Of a stretch of 64,000 bases of DNA, positions 7,704 to 40,038 are shown one piece after another; within the stretch, counting starts at the first letter, position 1; every line of letters starts with the position of its first letter. This DNA comes from an uncultured Vicinamibacteraceae bacterium. Lineage in GTDB: Bacteria; Acidobacteriota; Vicinamibacteria; Vicinamibacterales; Vicinamibacteraceae. The position numbers were made by a program, and so were the translations under genes. Under the pieces are notes generated by a model. It saw only the letters and a program-made list of their open reading frames with translations. It made no database searches and was not told the origin of the DNA. The stretch spans positions 2,376 through 66,375 of the forward strand of contig CAYSHC010000002.1 in NCBI GenBank assembly GCA_964430855.1. Direction: 5' to 3'.

Positions 7704-9107
7704 ATGTCGTGGTCCCTCGCCCGCATCCGTAGTTCCCGCCGTGCGCTCGTCACCCTGGGCGTCCTCGGGGGCAGCTTCCTCGGCGCCATCGAGGCGACGA
7801 TTGTCGCCACCGCGATGCCGACGGTGGTCGAGCAGCTCGGGGGCCTGGCGCACTACAGCTGGGTGTTCTCGGCCTATCTGCTCACGTCCACCGTCACGAC
7901 GCCTATCTGGGGCCGGCTGTCCGACATCTACGGGCGCCGCCGGTTCTACTCGGCGGCGATCGGCATCTTCCTGGCGGGCTCGATCCTGAGCGGCAGCGCG
8001 CAGTCGATGGAGCAGCTGATCGTCTATCGCGCGATCCAGGGCGTCGGCGCCGGCGGCCTGCTGCCGCTGGGCATGACGATCCTCGGCGAGATCTTCTCGC
8101 TCGAGGAGCGCGCGCGGGCGCAGGCGCTGTTTGCCGGCGTCTGGGGCGTCGCCTCGATCCTCGGGCCGCTCGCCGGCGCGGTGATCACGCAGGGGCTCTC
8201 ATGGCGGTGGGTGTTCTTCATCAACGTGCCCTTCGGCCTCGTCGCCGGCCTGCTCGTCGGCCGCAACCTGACCGAGACGCCGCACGACGGACGCCCGCGG
8301 GTCGACTACGTCGGCGCGGCCCTGATGATGGCGGCCGTGACGGCGCTGATGCTCGCCCTCAACCAGACGTCGGTCGACGATGGCCTGCCGCTCCCCGTCG
8401 TGCAGGGCCTCTACGGCCTCGCCGTCGTGCTCGGCATCCAGTTCGTCAGGACGCAGCGGCGCATCAGCGAGCCGATTCTTCCCCTCGATGTCCTGGCCAA
8501 CAGGTTCGTCGCGGTAACGACGTTGAGCAACATGTTGCTCGGGATCGGTATCTTCGGTGCACTCACCTTCGTGCCCCTGTTCGTCCAGGGCGCCATGGAG
8601 CGGTCGGCCGCCGAGGCCGGGGGCGTCCTGACCCCCCTCCTCCTGGGATGGGTGCTGATGTCGGTGGTGACGGGGCGCCTGCTCCCTCGCCTCGGGCATC
8701 GGCCGTTCATCCTGACCGGACTCACGTGCGTGACCGTCGGCTTCTTCGGCCTGCTGCTGGTCCATCGCGACTCGCCGCTGTGGCGGATGTACGTCGACCT
8801 CGGCCTGATGGGCATCGGCATGGGCATGACGATGCTGTCGTTGCTGCTGGCCGCGCAGGGGTCGGTGCCAAGGACCCAACTTGGTGTCGCGACGTCACTT
8901 GCGGCGTTCGCCCGCAGCATCGGCGGCGCCATCGGCGTGGCCGTGATGGGCGCCATCGTCGCGGCGGCCCTGCCGGCGGGGATGGACGATCCTGCCGCCC
9001 TCGAGCTGGGGATCCGCCGCGCATTCCTCCTTGGCGCTTCCGTGTCGGTGCTCGCCCTGGCCGCGGGGTTCTTCATCCCGGGCCGCATGCCCGATCGGAC
9101 CGTGTAA
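7704..9107 (+). CDS. MFS transporter (DHA2/EmrB-like, about 14 TM)
   Basis: 467 aa. The segments GAIEATIVATAMPTVVEQLGG and GRLSDIYGRRRF match MFS motif A. Confidence 0.9.
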   Translation: MSWSLARIRSSRRALVTLGVLGGSFLGAIEATIVATAMPTVVEQLGGLAHYSWVFSAYLLTSTVTTPIWGRLSDIYGRRRFYSAAIGIFLAGSILSGSAQSMEQLIVYRAIQGVGAGGLLPLGMTILGEIFSLEERARAQALFAGVWGVASILGPLAGAVITQGLSWRWVFFINVPFGLVAGLLVGRNLTETPHDGRPRVDYVGAALMMAAVTALMLALNQTSVDDGLPLPVVQGLYGLAVVLGIQFVRTQRRISEPILPLDVLANRFVAVTTLSNMLLGIGIFGALTFVPLFVQGAMERSAAEAGGVLTPLLLGWVLMSVVTGRLLPRLGHRPFILTGLTCVTVGFFGLLLVHRDSPLWRMYVDLGLMGIGMGMTMLSLLLAAQGSVPRTQLGVATSLAAFARSIGGAIGVAVMGAIVAAALPAGMDDPAALELGIRRAFLLGASVSVLALAAGFFIPGRMPDRTV

Positions 9108-9227
9108 CCTTTTCCGTCCTTCAACCCGACACCACCGGGTTCCCCCCGTTCGTTACCGCGATTACCACAGCGTCACCCGGTCTACAGCAGCCTGTCCTGC
9201 CGTGCCCGGCCGTTCGTGCCGTCCAGC

Positions 9228-9242
9228 TGGCACGTTTGTTGT
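9228..9242 (+). promoter_or_regulatory. sigma54-like -24/-12 element candidate
   Basis: TGGCACGtttgTTGT against the consensus TGGCACG-N4-TTGC. Only the -12 C is mismatched. It sits about 70 nt upstream of the KGG stress protein start. Confidence 0.3.
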
Positions 9243-9310
9243 AACCGGTCTACTCGACGTCATCGCACTCGTTCGGTCCCGCCGACGCGGGGCCGTTACA
9301 TACCAGGGAG

Positions 9311-9613
9311 GTGTCCGTGAGCAACAACGACCCCATGAACCCCACGTCCACGACCGGTGCCGAGCAGCCTCGCCGCAAGGAGCGCCGCGGCTTTGCCTCT
9401 ATGTCGCCCGAGAAGCAGCGCGAGATCGCCAGCAAGGGCGGTCGCGCGGCCCACTCGAAGGGCACGGCGCACGAGTGGACGTCTGAAGAGGCGCGTGCTG
9501 CGGGCCGCAAGGGCGGCCAGGCCAGCCGCGGGGGGCGCGGCCGCCTGCCCGCGGGCACGACCGAGACGCAGGGAACGCCGAGCGAGCCGGGCAGCCAGCC
9601 GACCGATCGGTAA
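9311..9613 (+). CDS. KGG-repeat general stress protein (YciG-like)
   Basis: 100 aa with repeats SKGGRAAHSKG and GRKGGQASRGG. GGGAGG Shine-Dalgarno sits directly upstream. Start is GTG at 9311, or possibly 9317. Confidence 0.8.
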   Translation: MSVSNNDPMNPTSTTGAEQPRRKERRGFASMSPEKQREIASKGGRAAHSKGTAHEWTSEEARAAGRKGGQASRGGRGRLPAGTTETQGTPSEPGSQPTDR

Positions 9614-9627
9614 CCATTCCGTGACCG

Positions 9628-11658
9628 GTGACGGGCGCGTCCCGCCACCGGTCTCCTTTTCGTCCTGCCGGCCCCGGGCGGCGCGCTTCTCGCCTTGTGA
9701 AGGACCGTCGACAAGGGCAAGATGACCCGGTGGCCCCCGTCTTCGCGCCGTGCCGGCTCGTGGCGTCCCTCGTGGCGCTCCTTGCGTTCGCTGCCGGCGG
9801 CGTCTCGTACGGCCAGCCTGCCGGGGAACCTGCCACCCGCTACGTTCGCAGCCTCGACATCGTCGGGGCCGATGACATCGACGTCGATGACCTGAAGCGG
9901 GTCCTCAGGACGCGCGTCAGCAGCCGCCTCCCCGTCATCGGGCGCGATCGCGAGTTCAACCGCGAGGTCTTCCAGCAGGACCTCTACCGGATCGTCGCCT
10001 ACCTCTCCGACAACGGCTTCCCCCGGGCTCGCGTGACCCACGTCGAGATCCGCCCGCAGGCGCCCGACGGCGTCCGCCTGACGGTGCACGTGGATCCCGG
10101 CCCGCCCGTCATCGTCGATCGCGTCGACATCTACGGGTTCGGCGTCCTCGACGATGAGGATTACGCGGCGGTGGAAGAGCGTGTGCGCCTCAGGCCGGGC
10201 GAGCGCCGGCGCCAGGAACAGGTGCGCGAGACGCGCGCCGCCACCGTCGCCGTCCTCCAGGAGCGGGGCTACGCCCACGCGGCCGTCGAGGTCCTCGAGG
10301 GCGACGGGCGCGAGCCCGGCACCGTGGCGATGGCGGTGGTCGCCGACCCCGGGCCCCAGGCCACGTTCGGCCCGGTGACGGTGCGCGGCAACGGCAGCGT
10401 CAGCGAGGGCCGCGTGCGATCGCTGCTCGCCTTCCGCGAGGGCGAGGTCTTCAGGCTGTCGAAGCTGCTCGAGAGCCAGCGCCGGCTCTACAACCGCGAG
10501 ATCTTCCAGTTCGTCACGATCACGCCGACGCCGGGCCATCAGGGCACCGACACGGTACCGATCGACGTCACGCTGACCCAGGGCCGTTCACGCCGGGTCT
10601 CGGTCGCCCCCGGCTTCGGCAGTGAGGAGCGGGGCCGCGTCATGGCGACGCTGCGGCACCTCAACGTGTTCGGCGGCGCGCGCGTCGCGCAGCTCCAGAC
10701 GAAATGGTCGTCGCTCGATCGGGGGGCACGGGTGGGATTCGAGGAGCCGTCGCTCTTCCGGCGCGGCATCTCGATGAGCAGCTCGCTCCAGTACTGGTAC
10801 GCCGACGAGCCGGCGTACTCGCTGCTCACGAGTGGCGGCCGCGTGACGCTGGCACGCGAGCTGTCGCGCAGCGACCCGATCACCCGCAGCCAGGCGCTGA
10901 CGACGGTGTCGGTGTCGTTCGTGAACGAGTACGAGGACTACACGATCTCCGACGACGCGCTCCAGGACCTCACGTTCCGGGACGAGCTCATCGCGCTCGG
11001 CCTCGACCCCACGCGCGGCGCGGGCAACGGCACGCTGGCGGCCATCGGCTTCGACATCCAGCGCAACACGACGCAGAACCTGATCGATGCCAGGCAGGGT
11101 TACCTCGTCCGCGCCCACGTGGAACAGGCGGGGCAGTGGCTGCCCGGCGACTTCAACTACCGCGAGTACTCCACCGAGGGCCGTCTCTACGCCACGCTGT
11201 TCGGGCGCCTGGTGATGGCGGGGCGTCTGCGTCTCGCCACGATCGACGCGCCGGGACAGCTCGAGCCCAACGTGCCGTTCTTCAAGCGCTACTTCCTTGG
11301 CGGCGCCAGCAGCCTTCGCGGCTGGGGGCGGTTCCAGGTGAGCCCATTGAGCGGGTCGGGCCTGCCCATCGGCGGGCACTCGCTGTTCGAGTCGTCGCTC
11401 GAGGCGCGCCTGCCGCTCGTCGGCAACGTCGGGACGGTGTTCTTTCTCGATGCCGGCAACACGTGGCGCAACAGCTTCGAGCTGCACCTCGACGACCTGC
11501 GGTACTCGCTCGGCAGCGGGCTCCGCTACACCACGCCCATCGGCCCGGTGCGTTTCGACCTCGGCTATCAGCTCAACCCGATCGAAGGGCTCCTCGTGGA
11601 CGGCGAGCCACAGCCGCGCCGCTGGCGCATGCACTTCAGCATCGGACAGGCGTTCTGA
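9628..11658 (+). CDS. tamA: BamA/TamA family outer membrane protein (POTRA domains + Omp85 barrel)
   Basis: Omp85 C-terminal motifs (RYFLGGASSLRGW, GLRYTTPIGPVRFDLGY, terminal ...HFSIGQAF). Sits directly upstream of a TamB-like gene. The true start is probably internal (GTG at about 9730, giving signal peptide APVFAPCRLVASLVALLAFAAGG). Confidence 0.8.
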   Translation: MTGASRHRSPFRPAGPGRRASRLVKDRRQGQDDPVAPVFAPCRLVASLVALLAFAAGGVSYGQPAGEPATRYVRSLDIVGADDIDVDDLKRVLRTRVSSRLPVIGRDREFNREVFQQDLYRIVAYLSDNGFPRARVTHVEIRPQAPDGVRLTVHVDPGPPVIVDRVDIYGFGVLDDEDYAAVEERVRLRPGERRRQEQVRETRAATVAVLQERGYAHAAVEVLEGDGREPGTVAMAVVADPGPQATFGPVTVRGNGSVSEGRVRSLLAFREGEVFRLSKLLESQRRLYNREIFQFVTITPTPGHQGTDTVPIDVTLTQGRSRRVSVAPGFGSEERGRVMATLRHLNVFGGARVAQLQTKWSSLDRGARVGFEEPSLFRRGISMSSSLQYWYADEPAYSLLTSGGRVTLARELSRSDPITRSQALTTVSVSFVNEYEDYTISDDALQDLTFRDELIALGLDPTRGAGNGTLAAIGFDIQRNTTQNLIDARQGYLVRAHVEQAGQWLPGDFNYREYSTEGRLYATLFGRLVMAGRLRLATIDAPGQLEPNVPFFKRYFLGGASSLRGWGRFQVSPLSGSGLPIGGHSLFESSLEARLPLVGNVGTVFFLDAGNTWRNSFELHLDDLRYSLGSGLRYTTPIGPVRFDLGYQLNPIEGLLVDGEPQPRRWRMHFSIGQAF

Positions 11659-11664
11659 TTCGCG

Positions 11665-14600
11665 ATGGCCCTGACGCGCCGCCTGCTCCGGCTCCTGAAG
11701 CTGCTCACGCTCGTCCTCGTGGCGCTCGTCGTCGCGTCGCTCGTCGTGACGCAGACCCCCTGGTTCCGGGACTGGCTGCGGCGCACGGCCATGCGGCAGG
11801 CCGAGCGTGTGATCGACGGGCAGCTGATCATCGGCCGCATCGAGGGGACGCTCTTCACCGGGGTCGTGCTGCGCGACGTGTCGGTCGTGCAGGAGGGCGC
11901 GCCGGTCGTGAGCATCGACAGGGTCGAGGTGCGCTACGGACTCGGCGAGCTGCTCTCGGACGGGCGCGTCATCGGGCGACTGCACGTCGAGCGCCCCGTC
12001 GTCCGGGCGATCCGCACGCCCACCGGGTGGAACCTCGGCCGCCTGCTGCGGCCGCGCGCTCCCTCGCGCCCCGGCGCACCGCGTCCGACGTTCGCGCTCC
12101 CCGACATCACGGTCGAGGACGCGCGCGTCACCATCGAGGGCGCGGGCGCCGAGCCGGCCCGCACGTTGCCGCGGCGTATCGACGGCCTCAGCTTCCGGGG
12201 CGGCGTGACGAGCGGCGGCGAGACACTCGCCATCGACATCCGCGCGCTGCGGCTCGAGGCGGCGGAGCCCGACCTGTCGCTCGCCGACGTGCACGGCCGT
12301 CTCGTCAACGACACCGCGGGCTGGCACTTCGAGAACCTGCATGTGCAGACGGGCGACTCGGTCGTCGACGTGACCGGCGACCTCACGCGGACGGAAGAGG
12401 GCGGGCCGCTGACCTTCGCGCTCGACGTCGCCGGGTCGCCGGTGTCGCTACCGGAGGTTGGCCGCTTCCTGCCAGCCGTGGCAGCGATCGACGTGCGGCC
12501 ACGCTTCACCGCGCGCGTGGAAGGTCCGCTCGACGCACTGCGCGTCGACCTCCACATGTCGTCGGAGGCGGGCGACGTCAGGGGACCGGTGACGCTCGAC
12601 CTGCGCGGCCCCACGCGGTCGGTGGCGGCTGACGTGGACATCGCCGATATCGACCTCGCGCCCTGGCTCGACGACACGTTTGCCGAAGGGGCCATCACAG
12701 GGCACGCCCGCGTGAACCTCCGCTTCCCGTCGGCCACGCCAGGGGTCGCGCTCGACGGCGCCGCACACTTCGAGGGGCCGTCGGCCGGCGCCTACGGGTA
12801 CGCCGCACGCGACGTCGTCGCCGACGCGCGGTTCGTCGGCCGACGCATCGAACTCGTGGCGAGGGCTTCCGCATACGGCGGCCGCGCGACGACGCGCGGG
12901 TTCATCCAGCGGGCGGCACGTCCGGGCGAACGGCTGGTCCTCTCGCTTGCCGGAGACGTCTCGGACATCGACCTGCGGCAGCTCCCGCCGGAGCTGGCCG
13001 TGCCGCCGCTCGAGACGGCCATCACCGGCGCGTACACCGTGGAAGGGCCCGTCGGGCGCCTGCACCTTGCGGCGACGCTCGACGCGTCGGTGGTCGAGGG
13101 GGCGCACCTCGGCGACGGCTTCACGGGGGCGTTCCAGCAGGCCCCCGACGGCTATGCGTTCACGGCCGACGGCTCCGTTGCGGACCTCGATCTGCCGCGG
13201 CTCGGCCGCGCCCTCGAGCTCCCGGCGCTCGCGGACGAGCGGTGGGCGGGGCGAATCAATGGAACCTTTCGCGTGCAGGGCACGAAGGACGGCGACGCGC
13301 CGCTGCTCCTGACGGCCGCCGGAGAGCTGCGAGACACGCGCGTGTACGGTGGCCATGTGCCGCAGATGGCGGTTGACGCGCGCCTCTCCGGAGACGTCCT
13401 CGACGTCGTGGCAAGAGGCGCGGTGCAGGGCTACGACCTCGCGGCGGTCAGCGGCATCGAGGCGCTCACGGGCAACCTCACCGGCGACGTGGACGCGCGC
13501 GTGACGTTCCAGGACCTGCGCGACGTGGCGTTTGCCTCGGTGGACGTCGACGGCACGGTCACGTTGCGCACGCCGACGCTGCTCGACGTGCCCTTCACCC
13601 AAGTGGACGCCGACGTCGCGCTGACGGGCGGTGTGCTCGACGTGCGCCGCCTGCGGGGCACGGGCGACGGGTTCACGCTCACCGGAAAGGGCACCCTCGC
13701 GCTCGGCGAGGCCGGCGCCTCGGACTTCGCCTATGAGCTCGACGCTGCCTCGGTCGTCGGGCCGGCCCGGATCGCCGACCTGCCGCTGACGGGAGCGGTC
13801 ACGACGTCAGGGCGGATCACCGGCCCGCGCCAGGCCTTCCACGTCGAGGGCACGCTCGAGGGCGCGGACGTCGCGTACGAGGACGTCGTCCGCGCCGTGA
13901 CCGTCCAGGGGCGATATGCCATCGACCTCCCGGACCTGGAGCCCGATCGGCTGCGCGTCTCGTCGGAGGTGGCCGTCACCAAGGTGGACGTCGCCGGCGT
14001 CGGCCTCGAGTCGGCGCGGGGCACCGTTGGCTACACGCCCGACCTCCTGGCCTTCGACGTCGTGGCGACCGACGGCCCCCGTACGCTGCGCGGCGACGGC
14101 ACGCTGGCGCTGGCCGACGGCGCCCAGGTCCTCACGCTGAACCGCCTGGCGATCGAGCGGGAAGGCGTCAGGTGGGCGCTGGCGGGGGAAACGGCACCGG
14201 CGGCGCTCACGATCCGTCCCGACGCCGTCGACATCGTGCCGCTGACACTCGTGAGCGGGACGCAGCGCCTCAAGGTCGGCGGGCGTATCGCGCTGGCCGA
14301 CGAGGCGACGCACGCGCTCGACGTCGAGGCCTCCGCCGTCGATCTCGGCGAGGCGCTCGTCCTGGCCGCGCGCGACATCGACGCCGACGGCCTCGTCTCC
14401 CTGTCGGCACACGTCGGCGGTTCGGGCCGCCTGCCGACGGTGAGCGGCACGCTGGACGTCACGGGCGCGAGGTACCGGGACGTGCCCATCGCGCGCCTGC
14501 ACGCCACCGTCGAGAACGACGGCGGCGCCGCGCGGCTGGACGCGATCCTCCAGCAGAGCGACAGCGCCTACGTCACGGCAAGGGGCCGCGTGCCCCGGAC

Positions 14601-30793: not shown

Positions 30794-31821
30794 TCGCCGG
30801 CAGCGTGCGGCTGCCGGCAGGCTGGCAACGGGCCTGGCAGGAGCGTGTGTACGGCCTGCTGCAACCTGTGCTGAGCACGGCCTCGACGTGGGTGCCCATC
30901 GCGCTGCTGGACGTCGTCGTCGTCGCCGCCGCGGGAGGACTGGTCGTCCTCGTGACGCTGGCCTTGCGCACGAGGCGGCTCGTGCTGCCGTCGGCATGGC
31001 TGCTGGCCGCGGCATCAGCCGGATGGCTGCTGTTCCAGGTGCTCTGGGGCTGGCACTACCAGACGCCCACGCTCGAGGCGCGACTGCTGCCGGAGAACCC
31101 GCGGGATGCCCTGGACGCCGCCGCACCCCTCGTCTCGGCGTACGCCGTCGCCCGGCTCAACGCGTTGCACGGCACGGCGCACGGACGGCCCTGGCCGGAC
31201 ACGGCGGGCATCGCCGCCAGCCTCGAGCCCGCGCTGCGCGACGCGCTCGCCGACGCGGGCGTCGCCTGGCGGCCCGTGCTGCCGCCGCCGAAGAGGACGC
31301 TGCTTGACGGCTACTTCCGCCGGACGGGCATCGACGGCCTTACCAACCCGTTCGGCCTGGAGGTGGTGCTGCACGCGCGTCTGCTGCCTGTCGAGCAGCC
31401 CGCCGTGCTCGCACACGAGTGGGCGCACCTGGCCGGCCTGGCCGACGAGTCGGACGCCAGCTTCGTGGCGTGGATGGCTGGCGTCCGCGCGGGCGGCCAG
31501 ATGGAGTACGCCGCGTGGCTGGCGGTGCTGCCACATCTGGCGCAGGCGCTCTCGCGCGACGAACGCCCGTCGATCCTCGGGGCGCTCGACGCCGGGCCGC
31601 GTGCCGACCTCGAGGCCATGGCCCGGCGCGCACGGGATCGCTGGCCGGCCCTGCAGCAGGTCGCATGGCGCGTCTACGACAGGTTTCTGAAGGCGAACCG
31701 GGTGGAAGAGGGGATTGCCCGCTACGACGCGGTGACGCGTCTGGTGCTGCTGGCTGCCGACGCGGAGACCGGACGGCTCAAGGCGCGTCGCGGCAGCGGT
31801 GGGGAAAAGGGACGCCGCTGA
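30679..31821 (+). CDS. DUF3810-family putative membrane Zn-metalloprotease
   Basis: Contains N-terminal TM segments and VLAHEWAHLAGLADESDASFVAW (HExxH plus ExxA-like). The start is uncertain: ATG at 30679/30685 overlaps the end of ndh. Confidence 0.65.
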   Translation: MGMGVRHSPARDPAHHGRRPRGQPHAAVVPLVVAAVCLIAGSVRLPAGWQRAWQERVYGLLQPVLSTASTWVPIALLDVVVVAAAGGLVVLVTLALRTRRLVLPSAWLLAAASAGWLLFQVLWGWHYQTPTLEARLLPENPRDALDAAAPLVSAYAVARLNALHGTAHGRPWPDTAGIAASLEPALRDALADAGVAWRPVLPPPKRTLLDGYFRRTGIDGLTNPFGLEVVLHARLLPVEQPAVLAHEWAHLAGLADESDASFVAWMAGVRAGGQMEYAAWLAVLPHLAQALSRDERPSILGALDAGPRADLEAMARRARDRWPALQQVAWRVYDRFLKANRVEEGIARYDAVTRLVLLAADAETGRLKARRGSGGEKGRR

Positions 31822-31828
31822 GCGGGCG

Positions 31829-32638
31829 TCAGGTGGTGGGCGTCGAACGGCCCCTGACGGTGACGCTGCCGTTGACGGTCTCGATGCTCAGGGAGGGGCC
31901 GCCGCCGTTGAGGCGCCCGTCGAAGCGCCGCCGTCGGTCCTCGTCCTCGTCGACGTCGGTGAACCCGTCGACCGAGATCCTGCCGTTCACCGTGCGGACG
32001 GTCAGGTTGGCGGCGAGGCCGGCGGGGAAGGTCAGCTCGACGCTCCCGTTTACCGTCTCGAATCTCGCGCCTTCCGCGGGGACGCGATCGAGGGTGAGGT
32101 CGACGGAGCCGTTGACCGTCTCGGCCCGTCGGACCTGGCCGAGCGCCGAACCGCGCACCCGCCCGTTCACGGTCTCCAGATCGACGACCCCACGAACGGC
32201 CTCGATGGTGAGGGAGCCGTTGGTCGTCCGCAGCGTCAGCGAGGCGTTGCGCGGCACGCGGACGTCGTAGCGCACCTCGGCCTGCTGTCCGATCGAGAAC
32301 GACGACGGCCGGGTCGTCGTCAACGAGAGCGACGTGCCATCCACCTCTTCGGCAATGGTCGTCGCGGAGAGCAGCTGCCTGGCGCCCTCCTCGCTCCCCG
32401 CCTTGACCGTGCGCTCGGCACGAACCTCGACGCGCGTGCCGTCGTGACCCTCGACCGTCACCGCGCCATTCGTGTTGGCGATGCTGACGCTGGGACTGTC
32501 GCCGAGGTCGTAGGTGCGCTCCCAGGTGTCGCTGGCGCTGAAGCGCGGGCGGCCCGCGACCATGAGCTCACAGCCCGCCGACCCGAGAAGGGCCGCGGCC
32601 AGGACGGCTGCCGGCACACGCCGAGAGAGCACGCGCAT
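31829..32638 (-). CDS. DUF4097-family beta-repeat lipoprotein (putative adhesin)
   Basis: ATG at 32638. Lipobox LLGSAGC. Reiterated TxNGxv motifs: TNGAVTVEG, TTNGSLTIEA, TVNGRVRG, TVNGSVDLT, TVNGSVELT, TVNGRISVD, TVNGSVTVRG. Confidence 0.75.
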   Translation of the reverse strand: MRVLSRRVPAAVLAAALLGSAGCELMVAGRPRFSASDTWERTYDLGDSPSVSIANTNGAVTVEGHDGTRVEVRAERTVKAGSEEGARQLLSATTIAEEVDGTSLSLTTTRPSSFSIGQQAEVRYDVRVPRNASLTLRTTNGSLTIEAVRGVVDLETVNGRVRGSALGQVRRAETVNGSVDLTLDRVPAEGARFETVNGSVELTFPAGLAANLTVRTVNGRISVDGFTDVDEDEDRRRRFDGRLNGGGPSLSIETVNGSVTVRGRSTPTT

Positions 32639-32826
32639 ATAGCTGTTGAGACGGCCTGGCGGCGCCAAGGTTCCCTGGACCGGGGCGGCACACCCGATCG
32701 CAATCTCGTACGAGCGCTTACGGAACTGTAACCCTCGCATGGGTACCAGGCGACGTCGTGCGGCCAAGTCTGTGCCGATTCGGCCCGATTGCGCAAGACG
32801 GCGGGAGCCGCCGCCGGCGGAGGGCC

Positions 32827-32842
32827 GGGCACCGCCTTTGCC
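32827..32842 (+). promoter_or_regulatory. sigma54-type -24/-12 promoter candidate
   Basis: gGGCACcgcctTTGCc matches GGCAC-N5-TTGC exactly. It lies 18 nt (ATG 32860) or 48 nt (ATG 32890) upstream of the possible starts of the FN3/IPT gene. Confidence 0.4.
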
Positions 32843-32859
32843 TCGACACATGGGCGGGA

Positions 32860-35835
32860 ATGCCGTCTCTGCTGCGCCTGTTCGCGTCGATGAGCCGCCT
32901 GGCCGTTACGGCCGTGCTCGTCCTCCTGACGCTTGCATCGGCAGCCCAGGCAGGCACCGTCAGGCTCCAGTGGAAGCCGAACGCGGAGGCGAACCTCGCC
33001 GGCTACGTCGTGCTCTACGGTACCGCGTCCGGCGTCTACACCCAGTCCTTCGAGGTTGGCCCGACGGTGACGACCGTCGAGGTGCCCGACCTGCCGGACG
33101 GGGCGACCTATTACTTCGCCGTCCGCGCCTACAACACCTCGGGCCTCCAGAGCCCGCTGTCGAACGAGGCGTCCGTCTACCTCAGCCCGAAACCCCCGCC
33201 GCCGCCTGTGGTCACCGGCATGTCGCCGACGAGCGGCCCGATGGGCGGCAACACGCAGGTGACGCTCACCGGCGCGAACTTCACCGCGGGCACCGTCGTG
33301 CGCTTCGGCGCCACGGCCGGGACGGTGCAGAGCGTCTCGGCGGGCAGCATCGTCGTCCGGACGCCGGCGCTGCCGGTCGGTTCCGTCGCGGTGACGGTGA
33401 CGCGGCCCGACGGACAGGCGGCCACGGCGCCGGGCACGTTCACCGCGATGGCGCCGACGCCCGTCATCTCCGCCGTCACGCCGGCGTCGGGGCCGACAAG
33501 CGGCGGCACGAGCGTGACAATCACGGGCAGCCAGTTCGTCTCCGGCGCCACCGTCACGATCGGGGGCGCGCCTGCGGCCGTTGCCTCGCTGACCTCCACG
33601 GCGATCGTCGTCACGACGCCGGCCCGTGCCGCCGGGGCCGCCGACGTCAAGGTGACCAACCCCGGCGGACCGAGTGCGACCAGGGCCGCGGCGTTCACCT
33701 ACGTCGCTCCCGCGCCCGTGATCACGGCGATGTCGCCGACAAACGGGCCGACGAGCGGCAACGCGCTGGTCACGCTGTCCGGGATGCACTTCACCGCGGG
33801 CGCGGTCGTGCGGTTCGGGTCGGCCGCAGGTGCCGTGCAGAGCATCTCGCCGACGGCCATCGTGGTGCGGACGCCTGCCCTGGCCGCAGGCACGTACCCG
33901 GTGACCGTGACGCTGCCGGACGGGCAGTCGGCGGCGGCGCCGGGCGCGTACACGGCCGTCACGCCGTCGCTCCTCATCACGGCTGTCGGGCCGGCGTGGG
34001 GACCCGTCACCGGCGGGACCAGCGTGACGATCACCGGCGGGCAGTTCCAGACGGGCGCGTCGGTCACCGTGGGCGGCGTGCTCGCCGCGATCGCGTCGAT
34101 CTCGCCGACGGCCATCGTCATCATGACGCCGGCCCATGCGGCCGGCGCCGTGGACGTCAAGGTTGTCAACCCTGACGGCGCGACGGCGGTCAGCGCCGGC
34201 GCCTTCACCTACAGGGCCCCGGCTCCCGTCCTGACCGGTGTCCTGCCGGCGGCCGGGCCCGTCTCCGGCGGCACCGTCGTCACGGTGACGGGCGAGGGCT
34301 TCACGGGCGGCGCGGCGGTCCTGTTCGACGGCGTCGAGGGCGTGGTCACCGCACGAACGTCCACGCAGATCGAGGCCATCGCGCCGGCCCGCCCCGCGGG
34401 TGCCGTCACGGTGACCGTTCGCAACGAGGACGGGCAGACGAGTAGCCTGCCGGGCGCGTACACGTACGAGGACGAGCAGGAGACGGGTACGCCGACGTCG
34501 ACGCCACCCCCGCCGTTTGTCAGGTACTTCGCCGAGGGCGTCCACAGCGGGTTCTTCGATACGCGCTTCGCGCTGGCCAACCCGCACGACACGGACGCGT
34601 CGGTGACGGCGACCTTCACCGACCCGTTCGGCACGGAGGTCCCGATGCACATCGTCGTGCCGGCCGGCGGTCACGTGACCGTCGACCGCTCGAACATGCC
34701 GGCGCTGGCCAACGAGGCGTTCGCGACGCGGTTCGAGAGCGACGTCGAGATCGGCATCGACAGGACGGTGCAGTGGGATTCGGCCGGCTACGGCGCGCAC
34801 AGCGAGACGGGCATCGCCTCGCCGCGGACGTCCTGGTACTTCGCGGAGGGGGCCACGCACTCGGGCTTCGACCTCTTCTACCTGCTCCAGAACCCGGCAG
34901 ACGAGACGGCTGTCGTCCGCGTCAGGTACCTGCTCGGCACCGGGCAGGTCATCGAGCGGGTCCACCACGTGGCGCCGTTCGCGCGGACGAACATCTGGGT
35001 GAACTACGACCACCCGGCCCTCGCCTCGGCGGAGATCTCGGCGGAACTCACGTCGCTCAACGGCGTGCCCATCGTCGCCGAGCGCTCGATGTACCAGAGC
35101 CTGAACGGCCAGCTCTTCACGTCGGGGCACAACAGCGGCGGCGTCGCCACGCCGTCCACCCAGTGGTTCCTGGCGGAGGGCACGACCGGCAGCACGTTCG
35201 ACATGTTCATGCTGGTGGCCAACCCCAACGCCACCCCGGCGAAGCTGCACGTGACGTACCTGCTCGCCGTCGGCCCGCCTGTCGTCCGGTCGTACACGGT
35301 GCCGGCCAACAGCCGCTTCACCGTCTGGGTCGACTACGAGGACCCGCGCCTGGCCCAGGCGGATGTCTCGGTCGTGGTCACCTCGACCAACGACGTGCCC
35401 GTCATTGTCGAGCGCACCATGTGGTGGGCCGACAGGCCAGGCCAGCCATGGACCGAGGCGCACAACAGCGCCGGCGTGACCTCGAGCGCGCCCGCGTGGG
35501 TGCTCGCCGACGGCGAGTCGTCCACCGCACGCGGCGCCGTGACCTACGCGCTCGTCGCCAACACGAGCCCGAAGGCGACGCCGGTCCGCTTCACGCTCCT
35601 GACGCCACAGGGTCGCGGTCGCAGCGTCCAGGCGACGGTTGCCGCCAGGAGCCGCTACTCGATCGATGTCGCGATGACATTCCCGGAGGCCCTCGACAGC
35701 CGCTTCGGCCTGCTGGTCGAGAGCCTCGACGGCGCGGCGCTGGTGGTCGAGCGCGCGAGCTACTGGAACGCCGGTGGCATCACGTGGGCCGCCGGCACGG
35801 CCAGCCTCGGCATGCCGCTCGCCGGCAGCCGATAA
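32860..35835 (+). CDS. secreted multidomain protein: signal peptide, FN3, 5x IPT/TIG, and an uncharacterised C-terminal fourfold repeat of about 108 aa
   Basis: Signal peptide ...LLTLASAAQA. FN3 segment: LQWKPNAEANLAGYVVLYG...YYFAVRAYNTSGLQSPLSNE. Five units of about 82 aa (P.(V/I)T...P..GP..GGT.VT(I/L)TG..F..GA.V.(F/I)GG). Then four repeats begin at nt 34515, 34833, 35164 and 35497. An alternative start is ATG at 32890. Confidence 0.88.
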   Translation: MPSLLRLFASMSRLAVTAVLVLLTLASAAQAGTVRLQWKPNAEANLAGYVVLYGTASGVYTQSFEVGPTVTTVEVPDLPDGATYYFAVRAYNTSGLQSPLSNEASVYLSPKPPPPPVVTGMSPTSGPMGGNTQVTLTGANFTAGTVVRFGATAGTVQSVSAGSIVVRTPALPVGSVAVTVTRPDGQAATAPGTFTAMAPTPVISAVTPASGPTSGGTSVTITGSQFVSGATVTIGGAPAAVASLTSTAIVVTTPARAAGAADVKVTNPGGPSATRAAAFTYVAPAPVITAMSPTNGPTSGNALVTLSGMHFTAGAVVRFGSAAGAVQSISPTAIVVRTPALAAGTYPVTVTLPDGQSAAAPGAYTAVTPSLLITAVGPAWGPVTGGTSVTITGGQFQTGASVTVGGVLAAIASISPTAIVIMTPAHAAGAVDVKVVNPDGATAVSAGAFTYRAPAPVLTGVLPAAGPVSGGTVVTVTGEGFTGGAAVLFDGVEGVVTARTSTQIEAIAPARPAGAVTVTVRNEDGQTSSLPGAYTYEDEQETGTPTSTPPPPFVRYFAEGVHSGFFDTRFALANPHDTDASVTATFTDPFGTEVPMHIVVPAGGHVTVDRSNMPALANEAFATRFESDVEIGIDRTVQWDSAGYGAHSETGIASPRTSWYFAEGATHSGFDLFYLLQNPADETAVVRVRYLLGTGQVIERVHHVAPFARTNIWVNYDHPALASAEISAELTSLNGVPIVAERSMYQSLNGQLFTSGHNSGGVATPSTQWFLAEGTTGSTFDMFMLVANPNATPAKLHVTYLLAVGPPVVRSYTVPANSRFTVWVDYEDPRLAQADVSVVVTSTNDVPVIVERTMWWADRPGQPWTEAHNSAGVTSSAPAWVLADGESSTARGAVTYALVANTSPKATPVRFTLLTPQGRGRSVQATVAARSRYSIDVAMTFPEALDSRFGLLVESLDGAALVVERASYWNAGGITWAAGTASLGMPLAGSR

Positions 35836-36017
35836 GGCCTTCCGACTAACAAATTTGTATGCCTGAGCTGGCCTCAAGAGTGCCAGATCGCTGACGATTC
35901 CGTAATCAGCGCTGCCGCCGCGGAATGGTCGAGATCGCCGGGTTGCCGACATTTGCCCGCGTTTTCGCCCCGTTTCGCGTCGGCCTTCGAGGCACGGAGG
36001 TTGCCCTGTTACCGGGC

Positions 36018-37946
36018 GTGAAGATTCGAGTGTCGTTTCGTCGTGCGCTGCACGCGCTGCTCCTCTGCGTGCTGGCGTTCGGCCCGGGCGTCACAGCTGC
36101 TGCGGCCGAAGACGTGCAGCTGGTCTGGGATCCCAACACCGAGCCAGACCTTGCCGGCTACGTCGTGCTGATTGGCACGGCGCCTCGCGTCTACACCCAG
36201 TCGGTCGAGGTGGGGCCGGCGCAGCCCTTCGCGTCAATCAGCGGCCTGCCTGGCGGTCTCACCTACTACTTCGCGGTCCGCGCGTTCAACACCGCCGGTC
36301 TCCAGAGCGGCCTGTCGAACGAGGTCTCGGTGTTTGTCGCCAATGACACCGCGCCTGCCGGCCCTGCGCCCGTGGTCACCAAGGCCACGCCCTCGTCCGG
36401 CCCGGCGGGGGGCGGCACGCTCGTCGCGCTCAACGTCACCGGGCTGAAGCCCGGCGCCACCGTCACCTTCGGCGGGCAGAGTGCCGTCGTCATCTCGTCG
36501 ACAGCCTCGTCGCTCATCGTCGTCGCGCCGGCGCACACGGCGGGGAAGGCCCCCATCGTGGTGCGGAACCCCGACGGCGCCGCGAGCGACGGGTCCGTGG
36601 CGTTCACCTATCAGGCCGGCGATCCGCCCGCGTGGGACTTCGTCCGCTACTTCGCCGAGGGCGCGCAGAGCGGGTTCTTCGAGACGCGCTTCGCCCTGGC
36701 CAACCCCCACGACCATCCGGTGGCGCTGCGCATCACGCTTACCGACGTCTTCGGCACCGAGACCGTCCTCACGCGGACGCTGGCGGCGGGCGCGCGCATG
36801 ACGCTCGACCGGTCGAACCTGCCGCCGCTCAAGAGCGAGGCGTTCGGCTCGCGCTTCGAGGCCAGCCACCCGATTGGCATCGACCGCACCATGACGTGGG
36901 ATGTCGCCCACGGGTACGGGTCGCACTCGGAGACGGGCATTCAGGAGCCGCGCACCACCTGGTACCTCGCGGAGGGCGCGACGCACAGCGGCTTCAATCT
37001 CTTCTACCTGCTCCAGAACTCCACCGACAAGGCGGCGCAGGTGCGCGTGCGCTACCTGCTCTCGACGGGCGACGTGATCGTGAAGAACCACGTGGTGGCG
37101 CCGCGGGCCCGCACCAACATCTGGGTGAACCTCGACGACCCGGTGCTCGCCTCGGCGGAGATGTCGGCGCATATCGAGTCGACCAACGGCGTCCCCATCG
37201 TCGTCGAGCGGTCGATGTACCTCGACCACGGGGGACAGCTCTTCACCGCGGGCCACAACAGCGGCGCGCTCCCCGCGGCAAGCACGCGCTGGTTCCTGGC
37301 GGAGGGCTCCACGGGCGATTACTTCGACACGTTCATCCTGGTGGCCAACCCGAACAGCGCGCCGGCGCAGCTGCGCGTCACCTACCTCCGCGCGGGTGAC
37401 AGGCCCGTGGAGGTCCCCTACACGGTGGCACCCAACAGCCGGCTCACCATCTGGGTCGACCAGCAGCCGGGGCTCTCCCATGCCGACGTCTCGGCGATCG
37501 TCGAGAGCGTCAACGACCAGCCCGTGATCGTCGAGCGCTCGATGTGGTGGCCCGGCGTCGCCGGCGGACCGTGGACCGAGGCGCACAACAGCGCCGCCGT
37601 CACCACGACGGCTTCACGCTGGGTGGTTGCCGACGGCGAGGACTCGCCGGCAACCACCACCTACGTCCTCGTGGCGAACACGGGCGACGAGGACGCACGC
37701 GTGCGGTTCACGCTGCTCGGCCCCTCGGGCAAGGTGAACAAGGTCACGCTGACGGTGAAGGCCCAGCAGCGGTTCTCGATGGACGTGGGCGCGACGTTTG
37801 CCGAGGCGCGCAACACGCGCTTCGGGGTGCTCGTGGAGGCCGAGGACCCCGACGCGCCGCTCGTCGTCGAGCGGGCGACGTACTCGGACGCCCAGGGCAT
37901 CCCGTGGGCGGCAGGATCCAACAGCCTGGGCACGCCGCTCGACTGA
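36018..37946 (+). CDS. paralogous secreted protein: signal peptide, FN3, 1x IPT/TIG, and the same C-terminal fourfold repeat
   Basis: GTG at 36018 (or 36030). Signal peptide ALHALLLCVLAFGPGVTAAAA. FN3 segment: LVWDPNTEPDLAGYVVLIG...YYFAVRAFNTAGLQSGLSNE. One IPT unit. Repeats begin at nt 36639, 36959, 37290 and 37620. By eye, about two-thirds identical to the upstream gene over the C-terminal region. Confidence 0.85.
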   Translation: MKIRVSFRRALHALLLCVLAFGPGVTAAAAEDVQLVWDPNTEPDLAGYVVLIGTAPRVYTQSVEVGPAQPFASISGLPGGLTYYFAVRAFNTAGLQSGLSNEVSVFVANDTAPAGPAPVVTKATPSSGPAGGGTLVALNVTGLKPGATVTFGGQSAVVISSTASSLIVVAPAHTAGKAPIVVRNPDGAASDGSVAFTYQAGDPPAWDFVRYFAEGAQSGFFETRFALANPHDHPVALRITLTDVFGTETVLTRTLAAGARMTLDRSNLPPLKSEAFGSRFEASHPIGIDRTMTWDVAHGYGSHSETGIQEPRTTWYLAEGATHSGFNLFYLLQNSTDKAAQVRVRYLLSTGDVIVKNHVVAPRARTNIWVNLDDPVLASAEMSAHIESTNGVPIVVERSMYLDHGGQLFTAGHNSGALPAASTRWFLAEGSTGDYFDTFILVANPNSAPAQLRVTYLRAGDRPVEVPYTVAPNSRLTIWVDQQPGLSHADVSAIVESVNDQPVIVERSMWWPGVAGGPWTEAHNSAAVTTTASRWVVADGEDSPATTTYVLVANTGDEDARVRFTLLGPSGKVNKVTLTVKAQQRFSMDVGATFAEARNTRFGVLVEAEDPDAPLVVERATYSDAQGIPWAAGSNSLGTPLD

Positions 37947-38007
37947 GGTCGATGGGATAAGCTAGCCCCTCGACGCGTCGTCCCCCACGACGCCTCCCCG
38001 AGGAGAC

Positions 38008-38373
38008 ATGGCCAGCTTCACGATCCGTATCGGCGCGATCCTCATCGCGGCAGGCGTCGCCGCCTACGTGCTCACCGGCGCCACCAGCGTCACCGCGCTC
38101 ATTCCGTCGGCCATCGGGGCCGGGCTGGCGCTGCTCGGCATCGTGGCGGTCAGGCGTCCCGACGCGCGCCAGCACGCCATGCACGTGGCCATGGTCGTGG
38201 CGCTCATCGGGCTGGCCGGCTCGTTCACCGGCCTGCTGGCGCTGCCCGACATGCTGTCGGGCACCGGCGTGCGCCCATCGGTCGCGCTGCGCGCGGTGAT
38301 GGCCGTGATGCTGCTGGTCTATCTCGGGGTGGGACTCAAGTCGTTCGCGGATGCCCGTCTGCGGCGGCGCTGA
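38008..38373 (+). CDS. small integral membrane protein (4 predicted TM), unknown function
   Basis: GAGGAG Shine-Dalgarno lies just upstream of the ATG. 121 aa of hydrophobic segments. High GC3. Confidence 0.65.
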
Positions 38374-39607
38374 CGGCCGTGGGCTTCGCCGGGTAGTGCG
38401 ACGCGACGTACGCGTCGACGAGGTCGCGGAAGCCGGCGGCCAGCTCGTCGTAGGTGCCGCGCAGCGTCACCGCATGCTCGCCGTCGATGTAGACGGGGCA
38501 GTTGGGGGCCTCTCCCGTGCCGGGGAGCGAGATGCCGATGTTGGCGGCCTTCGACTCGCCCGGCCCGTTCACCACGCAGCCCATCACCGCCAGCGTCAGC
38601 GTCTCGACGCCCTCGTACTGCTGGCGCCACTCCGGCATGCGCGAGCGGATGTACTCCTGCGTGCGCTCGGCGAGTTCCTGGAACGTCGTGGACGTCGTCC
38701 GGCCGCAGCCCGGGCAGGCGGTGACGCTCGGGCTGAACGACCGGATGCCGAGTGACTGGAGCAACTCGCACGCGGCGTACACCTCCTCGCGGCGGTCGCC
38801 GTTCGGCCGCGGCGTCAGCGACACGCGGATGGTGTCGCCGATGCCCTCGTGCAGCAGCACGCCCATCGCCGCCGACGACCACACGAGCCCCTTGATGCCC
38901 ATGCCGGCCTCGGTGAGGCCGAGGTGCAGCGGCTGCCGCGTGCGCGCCGCGAGCGCCCTGTACACCTCGATGAGGTGCACGGGCCGCGAGACCTTGCACG
39001 AGATGATGATCTGGTCGTGGCGCAGGCCGCACTCGAGCGCGAGGTCCGTCGAGGTGAGCGCCGACTCGACCATGCAGGCGTTGACGATCTCGTCGGACGT
39101 CTTCCCGAGCCCCCTGTCGGTGTTCTCCTGCATCCGCCGCACGACGAGCTCCTGGTTGAGGGAGCCGCCGTTGACACCGATGCGCACCGGCTTGTCGTTG
39201 TCACGGGCGACGCCGCAGATGGTCGCGAACTGCTCGTCGCGGCGGGCGCCCGTGCCGACGTTGCCGGGGTTGATGCGGTACTTGTCGAGCGCGGCCGCAC
39301 AGGCGGGGTAGCGCGTCAGCAGCAGGTGCCCGTTGTAGTGGAAGTCGCCGATGAGCGGGGCCTCGCAGCCGGCATCGCGCAGGCGCTGCTTGATCTCGGG
39401 GACGGCGCGCGCCGCCTCGGGCACATTCACGGTGACGCGCACCATCTCGGAGCCGGCCTCGACGAGCGCCAGGCACTGCGCCACCGTGCGCTCGACGTCG
39501 GCCGTGTCCGTGCTGGTCATCGACTGCACGACGACGGGGGCACCGCCGCCCACCTGGACGTGCCCGACGCGGACGCCGTACGTACGGTGCAACCGGACGG
39601 TCGTCAT
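38336..39607 (-). CDS. ispG: 4-hydroxy-3-methylbut-2-en-1-yl diphosphate synthase (flavodoxin)
   Basis: 423 aa. The segments [33 protein letters not shown] and [12 protein letters not shown] match IspG/GcpE. Confidence 0.95.
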
Positions 39608-40038
39608 GACGGCCAGCGCCTCCCGGATGGCGGCGGCAGGGCTTCGCCCGCCGCGTCACCGGCGTGCCCGCCGGCAAGTTCGGCGACGATGGCACGCAGC
39701 GCCTCGCGCTCCTCGGCGCGGACGCCTTCGAGCGCCAGCGCGGTGACATAGCGGGCCCGCGGCTCGCGTCCCGGCACGCCCGCGGTGCGGCAGTACACGA
39801 CGCGCCCCGTGAGCGTCAGCGGCGCGCGCGCCTCCACGACGATCGTGACGTCGCACGCGGTGTCGGGGCGGATGGGCGTGTCGCCTTCCACCAGGAGCCC
39901 GCTCTCGCTGACCTCGCGGAGCGCCATCGACGCATCACCGTCCCCGCGCACCACGCCGGCGCGGCGCGGAGGCACCTCCACCCGCAGGGCACGGCGCCGT
40001 TCGGGCGTCCAGTCGAGCGTGGCGTGCTTCAGGGCCAT
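39604..40038 (-). CDS. PilZ domain protein
   Basis: 144 aa with RRRALR (RxxxR) and EVSESG (D/NxSxxG-like) spaced as in PilZ domains. Its stop overlaps the ispG start (ATGA). Confidence 0.65.

Follow-up and report, generated by a model that had tools for sequence, protein, structure and literature searches.

Two adjacent genes, here called A and B, on the forward strand of a 64,000-nucleotide stretch of DNA from an uncultured Vicinamibacteraceae bacterium (contig CAYSHC010000002.1, positions 2,376 to 66,375; this whole stretch is "the window" below) encode proteins in which a signal peptide, an FN3 domain and one or more IPT/TIG domains precede a long C-terminal region built from four repeats (Table 1, below). 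That C-terminal region is a tetrad of ASRT/TM1070-like ASRAH domains, by sequence profile and predicted fold, and it is this tetrad that stays constant in, and defines, a very large family of paralogues centred on the Vicinamibacteria (Acidobacteriota). By analogy with its relatives the tetrad may be a lectin-like, glycan-binding anchoring or targeting module at the C-terminus of diverse passengers, a reading to which we give a probability of roughly one half. The ASRAH domain family is already known, but neither this architecture nor this lineage was described by De Souza et al. in 2009, and our literature search gave no paper on a Vicinamibacteria-centred family with the tetrad as its constant C-terminal module.

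The C-terminal regions begin at the motif FVRYFAEG (residue 553 of A and residue 239 of B), are 439 and 435 amino acids (aa) long, and consist of four in-register repeats of 104-114 aa each (r1 to r4), with the chain ending 0-4 residues beyond r4. An initial annotation, made from the sequence alone, had described a region of about 440 aa with four internal repeats that was "two-thirds identical by eye" in the two proteins, and this agrees well with the 62-63% identity measured between the tetrads, which are the most conserved part of both proteins. Within A, pairs of repeats are related in BLASTP comparisons with E values from 4e-31 (r2/r3, 42% identity) to 0.06 (r1/r4). Between A and B, repeats at the same position are 57-69% identical and repeats at different positions only 21-42%, which places the quadruplication long before the A/B duplication. 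No tandem repeats are present at the DNA level between 32800 and 38000, so the repeats are old and detectable only in the proteins.

The initial annotation could not assign this region to a family, but it can be assigned as follows: in the C-terminal region the sole Pfam model above its cut-off in A and B is DUF5719 (PF18986; 36.8 and 39.0 bits, respectively, against 26.2), and the match is confined to model positions ~49-156 of 319, which is one domain's worth. Isolated single repeats gave no Pfam match, DUF5719 being seen only when several repeats sum, and the whole tetrad found nothing when used as a single-sequence phmmer query against the PDB sequences. The three best PDB matches of a profile of 40 single repeats were 2II7 (E 3.9e-4), 2IIA (4.5e-4) and 1NC7 (1.3e-3); the first two are structures of ASRT, the sensory rhodopsin transducer of Anabaena, and the third is TM1070 of Thermotoga. 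The relatives P0034, P0075, P0077, P0079 and P0089 exceed the gathering score of PF07100 (ASRT), a family that the Pfam scan did not report in A or B themselves. NCBIfam has no model for the tetrad, and its matches are confined to the TIG region (CoaZ_rpt_PGGG and sub-threshold TIGR03437 and LIC10067).

The AlphaFold2 model of the A tetrad, built from a 107-sequence alignment (mean predicted local distance difference test score (pLDDT) 96.4, predicted template-modelling score (pTM) 0.93), predicts four all-beta domains packed in a fixed mutual arrangement as one rigid body. A Foldseek search of the PDB with this model found TM1070 (1NC7) at a template-modelling score of 0.82 on the target, a root-mean-square deviation of 1.8 Å over 116 residues and probability 1.0, and the ASRT chains 2II7/8/9 at scores of 0.63-0.81 and probability 1.0; the remaining matches are low-scoring alignments to chains with multiple beta-sandwich domains. 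The model of full-length B contains the signal helix, FN3, TIG and the tetrad (pLDDT 92, pTM 0.79).

The ASRAH superfamily was defined and named by De Souza, Iyer and Aravind (2009; PMC2739507), who predicted it to be sugar-binding and gave as its traits an eight-stranded sandwich, a Trp that follows a polar residue at the start of strand 1 and a near-invariant Asn at the end of strand 2. All eight repeats of A and B have the same ~110-aa eight-stranded beta-sandwich as ASRT (2II7-2IIA) and TM1070 (1NC7), to which the profile-to-sequence match also links them. The strand-1 Trp is invariant in r2, r3 and r4 (tetrad residues W107, W217 and W328; r1 has Arg there), and the strand-2 Asn (N22, N126, N236 and N349) is invariant or at least 90% conserved across the 107 sequences and invariant in the 40-repeat alignment. 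Further invariant residues are E and G of an AEG motif, R of an SRF motif, E and R of a VVER motif, and D119 and D229. Sequence identity to ASRT and TM1070 is just 16-26%, and the ASRT strand-2 signature SHEshChhN reads F-D-x-F-x-L-L-x-N in A and B, with H and C replaced by D and L. ASRT and TM1070 are stand-alone cytoplasmic single-domain proteins that bring four units together as a homotetramer (PMC2739507), whereas A and B are multi-domain proteins with signal peptides and carry four tandem domains in one secreted chain. Secreted ASRAH domains had been described as tetrads on Chloroflexi cell-wall amidases and as dyads in actinobacterial lipoproteins (PMC2739507). Our literature search found DUF5719/PF18986 mentioned in no paper and the name ASRAH only in the 2009 paper (PMC2739507); a paper on the fungal lectin CML1, in which TM1070 is merely a weak structural neighbour, was not used as evidence.

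How widespread is this module? A word-indexed search found more than 700 relatives (those named here carry P numbers), of which the best 120 all have E < 1e-106, and the named sources among these 120 are Acidobacteria or Vicinamibacteraceae metagenome-assembled genomes. When 1.84 billion representative proteins were searched exhaustively with a profile, 16,252 clusters (50% identity) matched at E <= 1e-3, 9,137 at <= 1e-10 and 4,669 at <= 1e-30; the search profile holds some linker columns, and the weakest of these classes (E <= 1e-3) may be inflated. Exactly four repeats are present in 118 of 120 close homologues and in 142 of the 144 best new representatives (P0121-P0264), the outliers among the latter being one protein with eight repeats (two tetrads) and one with five. 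In 134 of these 144, no more than 30 residues separate the end of the tetrad from the C-terminus. What lies ahead of it varies greatly: 67 different Pfam families were found there in a random sample of 42 representatives, among them TIG, TSP3_bac, beta-propellers, InlB B-repeats, DUF11, FN3, PPC and BACON, as well as subtilase, reprolysin-like metalloprotease, PhoX and phytase-like domains. Ten scanned homologues add ThuA, Peptidase_M64, PATR and RCC1. A signal-like N-terminus is present in 132 of 192 complete-looking members and a lipobox-like motif in only seven.

Most members (P0016-P0119 and P0121-P0264) also have a conserved linker ahead of the tetrad, DxDGDGLPDxWE...GLDP...GDPDGDGxTNxxE...GTHPRGF, which contains two 12-residue EF-hand/TSP3-like calcium loops and ends in THPxG; it lies directly upstream of the tetrad in 104 of the 144 representatives. 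This linker may make the position or function of the tetrad calcium-dependent. A, B and their closest relatives do not have it (the corresponding segments of the window are 34468-34515 and 36612-36638).

In species-representative genomes 216 stretches were confirmed and 79 loci were kept (cited below by L numbers), almost all of them from Vicinamibacteraceae, Luteitalea or unclassified Acidobacteria assemblies. One metagenome-assembled genome has at least 11 tetrad loci, and tandem or clustered tetrad genes are common, with two to five copies within 10 kb at 17 of 73 loci. The cultured Luteitalea sp. TBR-22, whose genome is complete, has a member annotated merely as "IPT/TIG domain-containing protein". 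Typical tetrad genes, 46-51% identical to A, also occur in two assemblies whose labels place them in other phyla: L003 (CAVPXB010000011, "uncultured beta proteobacterium") and, on a contig of only 2.5 kb, L024 (JANPKU010000190, "Actinomycetes bacterium"). Either mis-binning or rare transfer could account for this. No tetrad relatives were found on viral contigs.

The above results define the module, but what might it do? The tetrad would bind a glycan, either of the cell envelope or of the extracellular polysaccharide matrix, in its inter-domain clefts, and by doing so would retain or target whatever is fused N-terminally to it. The glycan-binding part of this proposal is suggested by the pockets at the dimer interfaces of the TM1070 homotetramer and the carbohydrate-related gene contexts reported for ASRAH domains (PMC2739507), and by the Chloroflexi amidase tetrads and the actinobacterial DUF5719 dyads. 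The anchoring or targeting part is suggested by the combination of a constant module with numerous passengers, a pattern typical of such modules, and the passenger domains BACON and ThuA fit a carbohydrate setting. A and B would then be the simplest members, each with the tetrad as a foot from which an FN3/TIG rod projects, at two different lengths, and their locus may evolve through tandem duplication and the gain or loss of TIG units. A foot of this kind fits the apparent lack of an N-terminal anchor in either protein, as their signals look cleavable and have no lipobox (below). The initial annotation had pictured the same head displayed at two distances from the cell; that polarity is probably reversed, given that the tetrad is the constant C-terminal part in 134 of 144 representatives, the N-termini vary and the signals look cleavable.

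Several points weigh against glycan binding and anchoring. To our knowledge no ligand has been demonstrated for an extracellular ASRAH domain, and sugar binding is a prediction even for the founding members. The H and C that are replaced by D and L in A and B (above) are pocket residues in the ASRT family, so any pocket in the tetrad differs from theirs. Location at the surface or in the matrix is assumed, in that a Sec signal reaches only the periplasm and Acidobacteria are two-membraned. At the 79 loci the tetrad genes have no recurring neighbours for polysaccharide synthesis, and in about 10 of the 144 representatives the tetrad is N-terminal or internal and is followed by 100-660 more residues. 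Finally, ASRT has been studied experimentally as a DNA-binding, DNA-looping protein and not as a lectin (PMC8660804). A confident match to a well-characterised family was what the initial annotation had named as telling against it; the match is indeed confident, but the function of the matched family is predicted and not characterised, and the earlier statement that the region has no known biochemical function still holds.

Among other explanations, the most serious is that these are periplasmic proteins whose tetrad binds peptidoglycan, a periplasmic glycan or a small molecule inside the envelope. We think this unlikely: the Sec signal is indeed the only evident export signal in a two-membraned host, and the ASRAH tetrads of Chloroflexi are joined to enzymes that act on peptidoglycan, the N-acetylmuramoyl-L-alanine amidases, but subtilases with PPC or P-domains, PhoX, BACON, InlB B-repeats, DUF11 and PATR are typically extracellular or surface-located, and rod-like Ig-repeat proteins of up to 2,000 aa would be unusual in a periplasm.

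The tetrad could instead be a distal functional head (an adhesin or ligand sensor) on FN3/TIG stalks that works in a system with the DUF4097, DUF3810 and four-transmembrane proteins encoded beside it, much as the initial annotation had supposed. Its high conservation in A and B would suit such a head, L001, L068 and L080-82 have DUF3810, DUF4097, the tetrad gene(s) and the small membrane protein in the same order as the window, and B and the membrane-protein gene lie on the same strand only 62 nt apart. We nevertheless find this quite improbable, as the proteins have AxA cleavage motifs and no lipobox, hence no N-terminal anchor to hold a stalk, and as family-wide it is the N-terminal part that varies while the tetrad stays constant; in addition, DUF3810 and DUF4097 are missing from the other 75 tetrad loci, and unrelated housekeeping flanks (NDH-2, IspG, PilZ, DEAD, RRM) are equally conserved. 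The neighbour "system" of the initial annotation therefore fails as a general property of the family, although it might apply within this orthologous group.

Its extreme C-terminal position in 134 of 144 representatives, the great diversity of passengers (secreted enzymes included), the many paralogues per genome and the seeming confinement of the family to one lineage would also be expected if the tetrad were a sorting or secretion domain, read by an outer-membrane export or attachment machinery similar to the type IX secretion system or to PEP-CTERM/exosortase. We doubt this explanation to much the same degree as the preceding one, since 440 aa in four rigid domains is far bigger than the sorting signals known to date, the loci show no recurring secretion or sortase-like genes in their neighbourhood, the tetrad is N-terminal or internal in ~7% of representatives, and its relatives (ASRT/TM1070 and the Chloroflexi amidase tetrads) are domains of a ligand-binding type. 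Least probable by far is a self-associating unit of an S-layer-like or matrix lattice with no glycan ligand, for although ASRT and TM1070 form tetramers, the modelled tetrad is compact and rigid (pTM 0.93) and the paralogue family is large, four domains in one chain would satisfy the tetramer interfaces internally, there is no sign of higher-order contacts, and enzyme passengers suit targeting better.

The glycan-binding anchor that we favour has a precedent in the Chloroflexi amidase tetrads (Roseiflexus, Chloroflexus and Herpetosiphon; family 2 of PMC2739507), which are likewise secreted, join four tandem ASRAH domains to an extracytoplasmic domain and were predicted to have a glycan-targeting role like the one proposed here. 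They differ in being fused to an N-acetylmuramoyl-L-alanine amidase in another phylum, whereas the tetrad of the A/B family lies C-terminally behind many different passengers; no amidase domain was found in A, B, the 10 scanned homologues or the 25 most frequent families of the 42 sampled representatives. The DUF5719 surface lipoproteins of actinobacteria (probably family 3 of PMC2739507) are, like A and B, extracytoplasmic proteins with multiple ASRAH domains, but they have a dyad and a lipobox Cys where A and B have a tetrad and no lipobox Cys. They also have family-specific N- and C-terminal extensions that A and B do not, FN3 and TIG lying upstream instead, and their gene neighbourhood (WhiB, a glycosyltransferase and an inactive zincin) is unlike that of A and B (NDH-2, DUF3810, DUF4097, the four-transmembrane ORF (open reading frame), IspG and PilZ). 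Varied secreted proteins of Acidobacteria also share a second paralogous C-terminal module, TIGR03437 ("Solibacter uncharacterized C-terminal domain"). It is a different domain; its match in A lies on the fifth TIG (residues 465-529) and not on the tetrad, at 26.4 bits against a cut-off of 29.05.

Gram-positive wall-anchoring modules (three SLH or three CWB2 domains) have a fixed tandem count, form one pseudo-symmetric body that binds envelope glycans, and occur in large paralogous sets. If the anchoring argument holds, the A/B tetrad would work as these triplets do, with an unrelated fold and in a two-membraned host, and A and B would be minimal rod-like members. In its most ambitious form, which we put forward only tentatively, the proposal is that the tetrad, usually with a THPRG-terminated calcium linker in front of it, might be an unrecognised surface or matrix anchoring (or sorting) module that organises much of the Vicinamibacteria secretome.

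Vicinamibacteria are abundant soil bacteria of which few have been cultured, and the display of enzymes and adhesins on their surface is poorly understood. An unexplained 440-aa repeat region has here become a defined and confidently modelled module carried by thousands of secreted proteins (proteases, phosphatases, propellers and Ig-repeat rods among them), which the databases name just "hypothetical" or "IPT/TIG domain-containing". Were the tetrad a glycan-binding anchor, it would make a Vicinamibacteria "surfaceome" retrievable, give extracellular ASRAH domains their first experimentally tractable role, and could be used as a tag when proteins are localised in cultivated Luteitalea. If it is merely another beta-sandwich repeat, then A and B are an ordinary tandem duplication of surface-protein genes.

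Table 1. Features of the A/B locus (window coordinates)
Feature	Position	Strand	Details and basis
DUF3810 membrane protein, HExxH (HEWAH)	30838..31821	+	Pfam E 9.2e-41; start approximate
Divergent DUF4097 ("toastrack") putative lipoprotein	31829..32638	-	Pfam 23.4 bits (cut-off 22.9)
Gene A	32860..35835	+	991 aa: signal peptide, FN3, 5 IPT/TIG, ASRAH tetrad; ORF, Pfam, 85% identical L001 orthologue
A signal peptide	32860..32952	+	MPSLLRLFASMSRLAVTAVLVLLTLASAAQA, then G; type I, without lipobox; read from translation
A FN3	32953..33189	+	Pfam PF00041, 32.6 bits (cut-off 25), residues 27-105
A stalk, five IPT/TIG (aa 116-536)	33205..34467	+	Pfam TIG E 3.5e-79, 5 stretches
A ASRAH tetrad (aa 553-991)	34516..35832	+	Repeat alignment, Pfam DUF5719, AlphaFold2, Foldseek
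A repeat r1	34516-34827	+	
A repeat r2	34828-35157	+	
A repeat r3	35158-35490	+	
A repeat r4	35491-35832	+	
Gene B	35925..37946	+	673 aa from ATG 35925; ORF listing
B signal peptide	36018..36107	+	VKIRVSFRRALHALLLCVLAFGPGVTAAAA, then ED; translation; low-confidence helix at model residues 7-20
B FN3	36108..36344	+	44% identity to A FN3 region; beta-strands 33-107 of model
B single IPT/TIG	36369..36611	+	Pfam TIG E 3.8e-14, residues 149-229
B ASRAH tetrad (aa 239-673)	36639..37943	+	Repeat alignment, Pfam DUF5719, full-length model
B repeat r1	36639-36953	+	
B repeat r2	36954-37283	+	
B repeat r3	37284-37613	+	
B repeat r4	37614-37943	+	
121-aa hydrophobic protein (~4 transmembrane segments)	38008..38373	+	62 nt past B; no family match (Pfam, NCBIfam)

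The initial annotation correctly described A and B as two adjacent same-strand paralogues of common architecture, and the ORFs lie on the + strand at the positions it gave. The ORF of A spans 32758-35835 and its best start is the ATG at 32860. In B, the GTG at 36018 or 36030 is a likelier start than the ATG at 35925, because each of these yields a normal signal peptide (and a protein of 642 or 638 aa), whereas with the ATG the hydrophobic core would be preceded by 31 residues. P0009, a metagenomic orthologue 93% identical to B, starts within the signal region, and a GGAGG sequence lies at 35996-36000. With the start of B corrected in this way, signal peptides, that of A typical of type I, can be read in both translations, as the Sec signals of the initial annotation had implied; they end ASAAQA/GTV in A and VTAAAA/EDV in B, where the slashes mark the putative cleavage sites (that of A from its AxA motif). 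The h-region of B is modelled as a helix with low confidence in a model that started at 36018. Neither protein has a lipobox, the sole Cys of B being inside the h-region. The G+C content of the third codon positions of both genes is 0.92-0.93 in a window of ~71% G+C, and the ratios of nonsynonymous to synonymous substitution rates relative to the L001 orthologues are 0.21 (A tetrad) and 0.12 (B tetrad); A and B are real genes under purifying selection. From their sequences they appear to be tandem duplicates whose products are Sec-exported, non-lipidated and made up entirely of beta-sandwich domains. No further tetrad copies were found within the window, and a scan of 32400-38500 found no promoter or terminator, which says nothing for or against co-transcription.

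Upstream of the tetrads the two proteins diverge in length. Pfam finds the five and one IPT/TIG units that had been counted in the initial annotation, with total TIG scores of 261 bits for A and 52.9 bits for B (above the gathering score). The TIGs of A are related in alternating pairs, 64% (first and third) and 65% (second and fourth) identical, and its stalk was lengthened by duplication of a two-TIG unit (T1T2 and T3T4). The FN3 domain of B is below Pfam reporting at E < 0.01, but B-like homologues have a precomputed PF00041 match that backs it, and 44% identity links the N-terminal region of B to the signal peptide and FN3 domain of A.

The identities that the initial annotation gave to the neighbouring genes are upheld by Pfam matches to DUF4097 and DUF3810 and by the 121-aa ORF with its ~4 transmembrane segments (Table 1). 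The DUF4097 ORF reaches 32851, but its likely start is an internal Met at 32638 that precedes the lipobox LLGSAGC, and a start there leaves a divergent intergenic region of ~220 nt (32639-32859) between this gene and A. The DUF4097 protein also has sub-threshold LiaX/LiaG matches in NCBIfam.

In the closest genome (L001, Acidobacteriota mag.51e) both genes are present and the whole gene order is kept, with orthologues 85% (A) and 86-89% (B) identical. More distant relatives share a frame of NDH-2, DUF3810, an opposite-strand DUF4097 gene, the tetrad gene(s), IspG and a 199-aa ORF. DUF4097 is kept at the syntenic locus in L001, L068, L005 and L080-82; it was not detected in L002, where gene order is only partly kept. 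L005 has the rest of the order without the small membrane protein. The DEAD helicase is also kept in L068 and L080-82, and the latter additionally have the PilZ and an RRM protein. The number of tetrad genes between DUF4097 and IspG is one in L068, L005 and L002, two in the window and L001, and three in L080-82 (8001-11837), and the A/B pair is most simply seen as a lineage-specific tandem duplication at a locus of variable copy number. The third tetrad gene of L080-82 encodes FN3 and a tetrad without TIG. The link with the neighbouring genes at this orthologous locus looks like plain collinearity because the housekeeping flanks (NDH-2, IspG, PilZ, DEAD helicase and RRM) are kept too.

Conserved functional partners as a general property of the family were considered and rejected: the gene clusters common between the 79 loci (for example uridine kinase, radical-SAM, AddAB-like helicases, asparaginase, permease and a CHAT/TPR protein) look like the housekeeping content of orthologous regions, as judged by eye from their sequences and without a Pfam scan. 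Downstream of B, the 121-aa membrane ORF runs towards ispG, and the 3' ends of these two convergent genes share 38 nt (38336-38373). Beyond ispG, a small ORF on the - strand (39604-40038) corresponds to the PilZ-domain gene of the syntenic L080-82 loci, and the 199-aa ORF and the DEAD-box helicase gene are conserved next to it.

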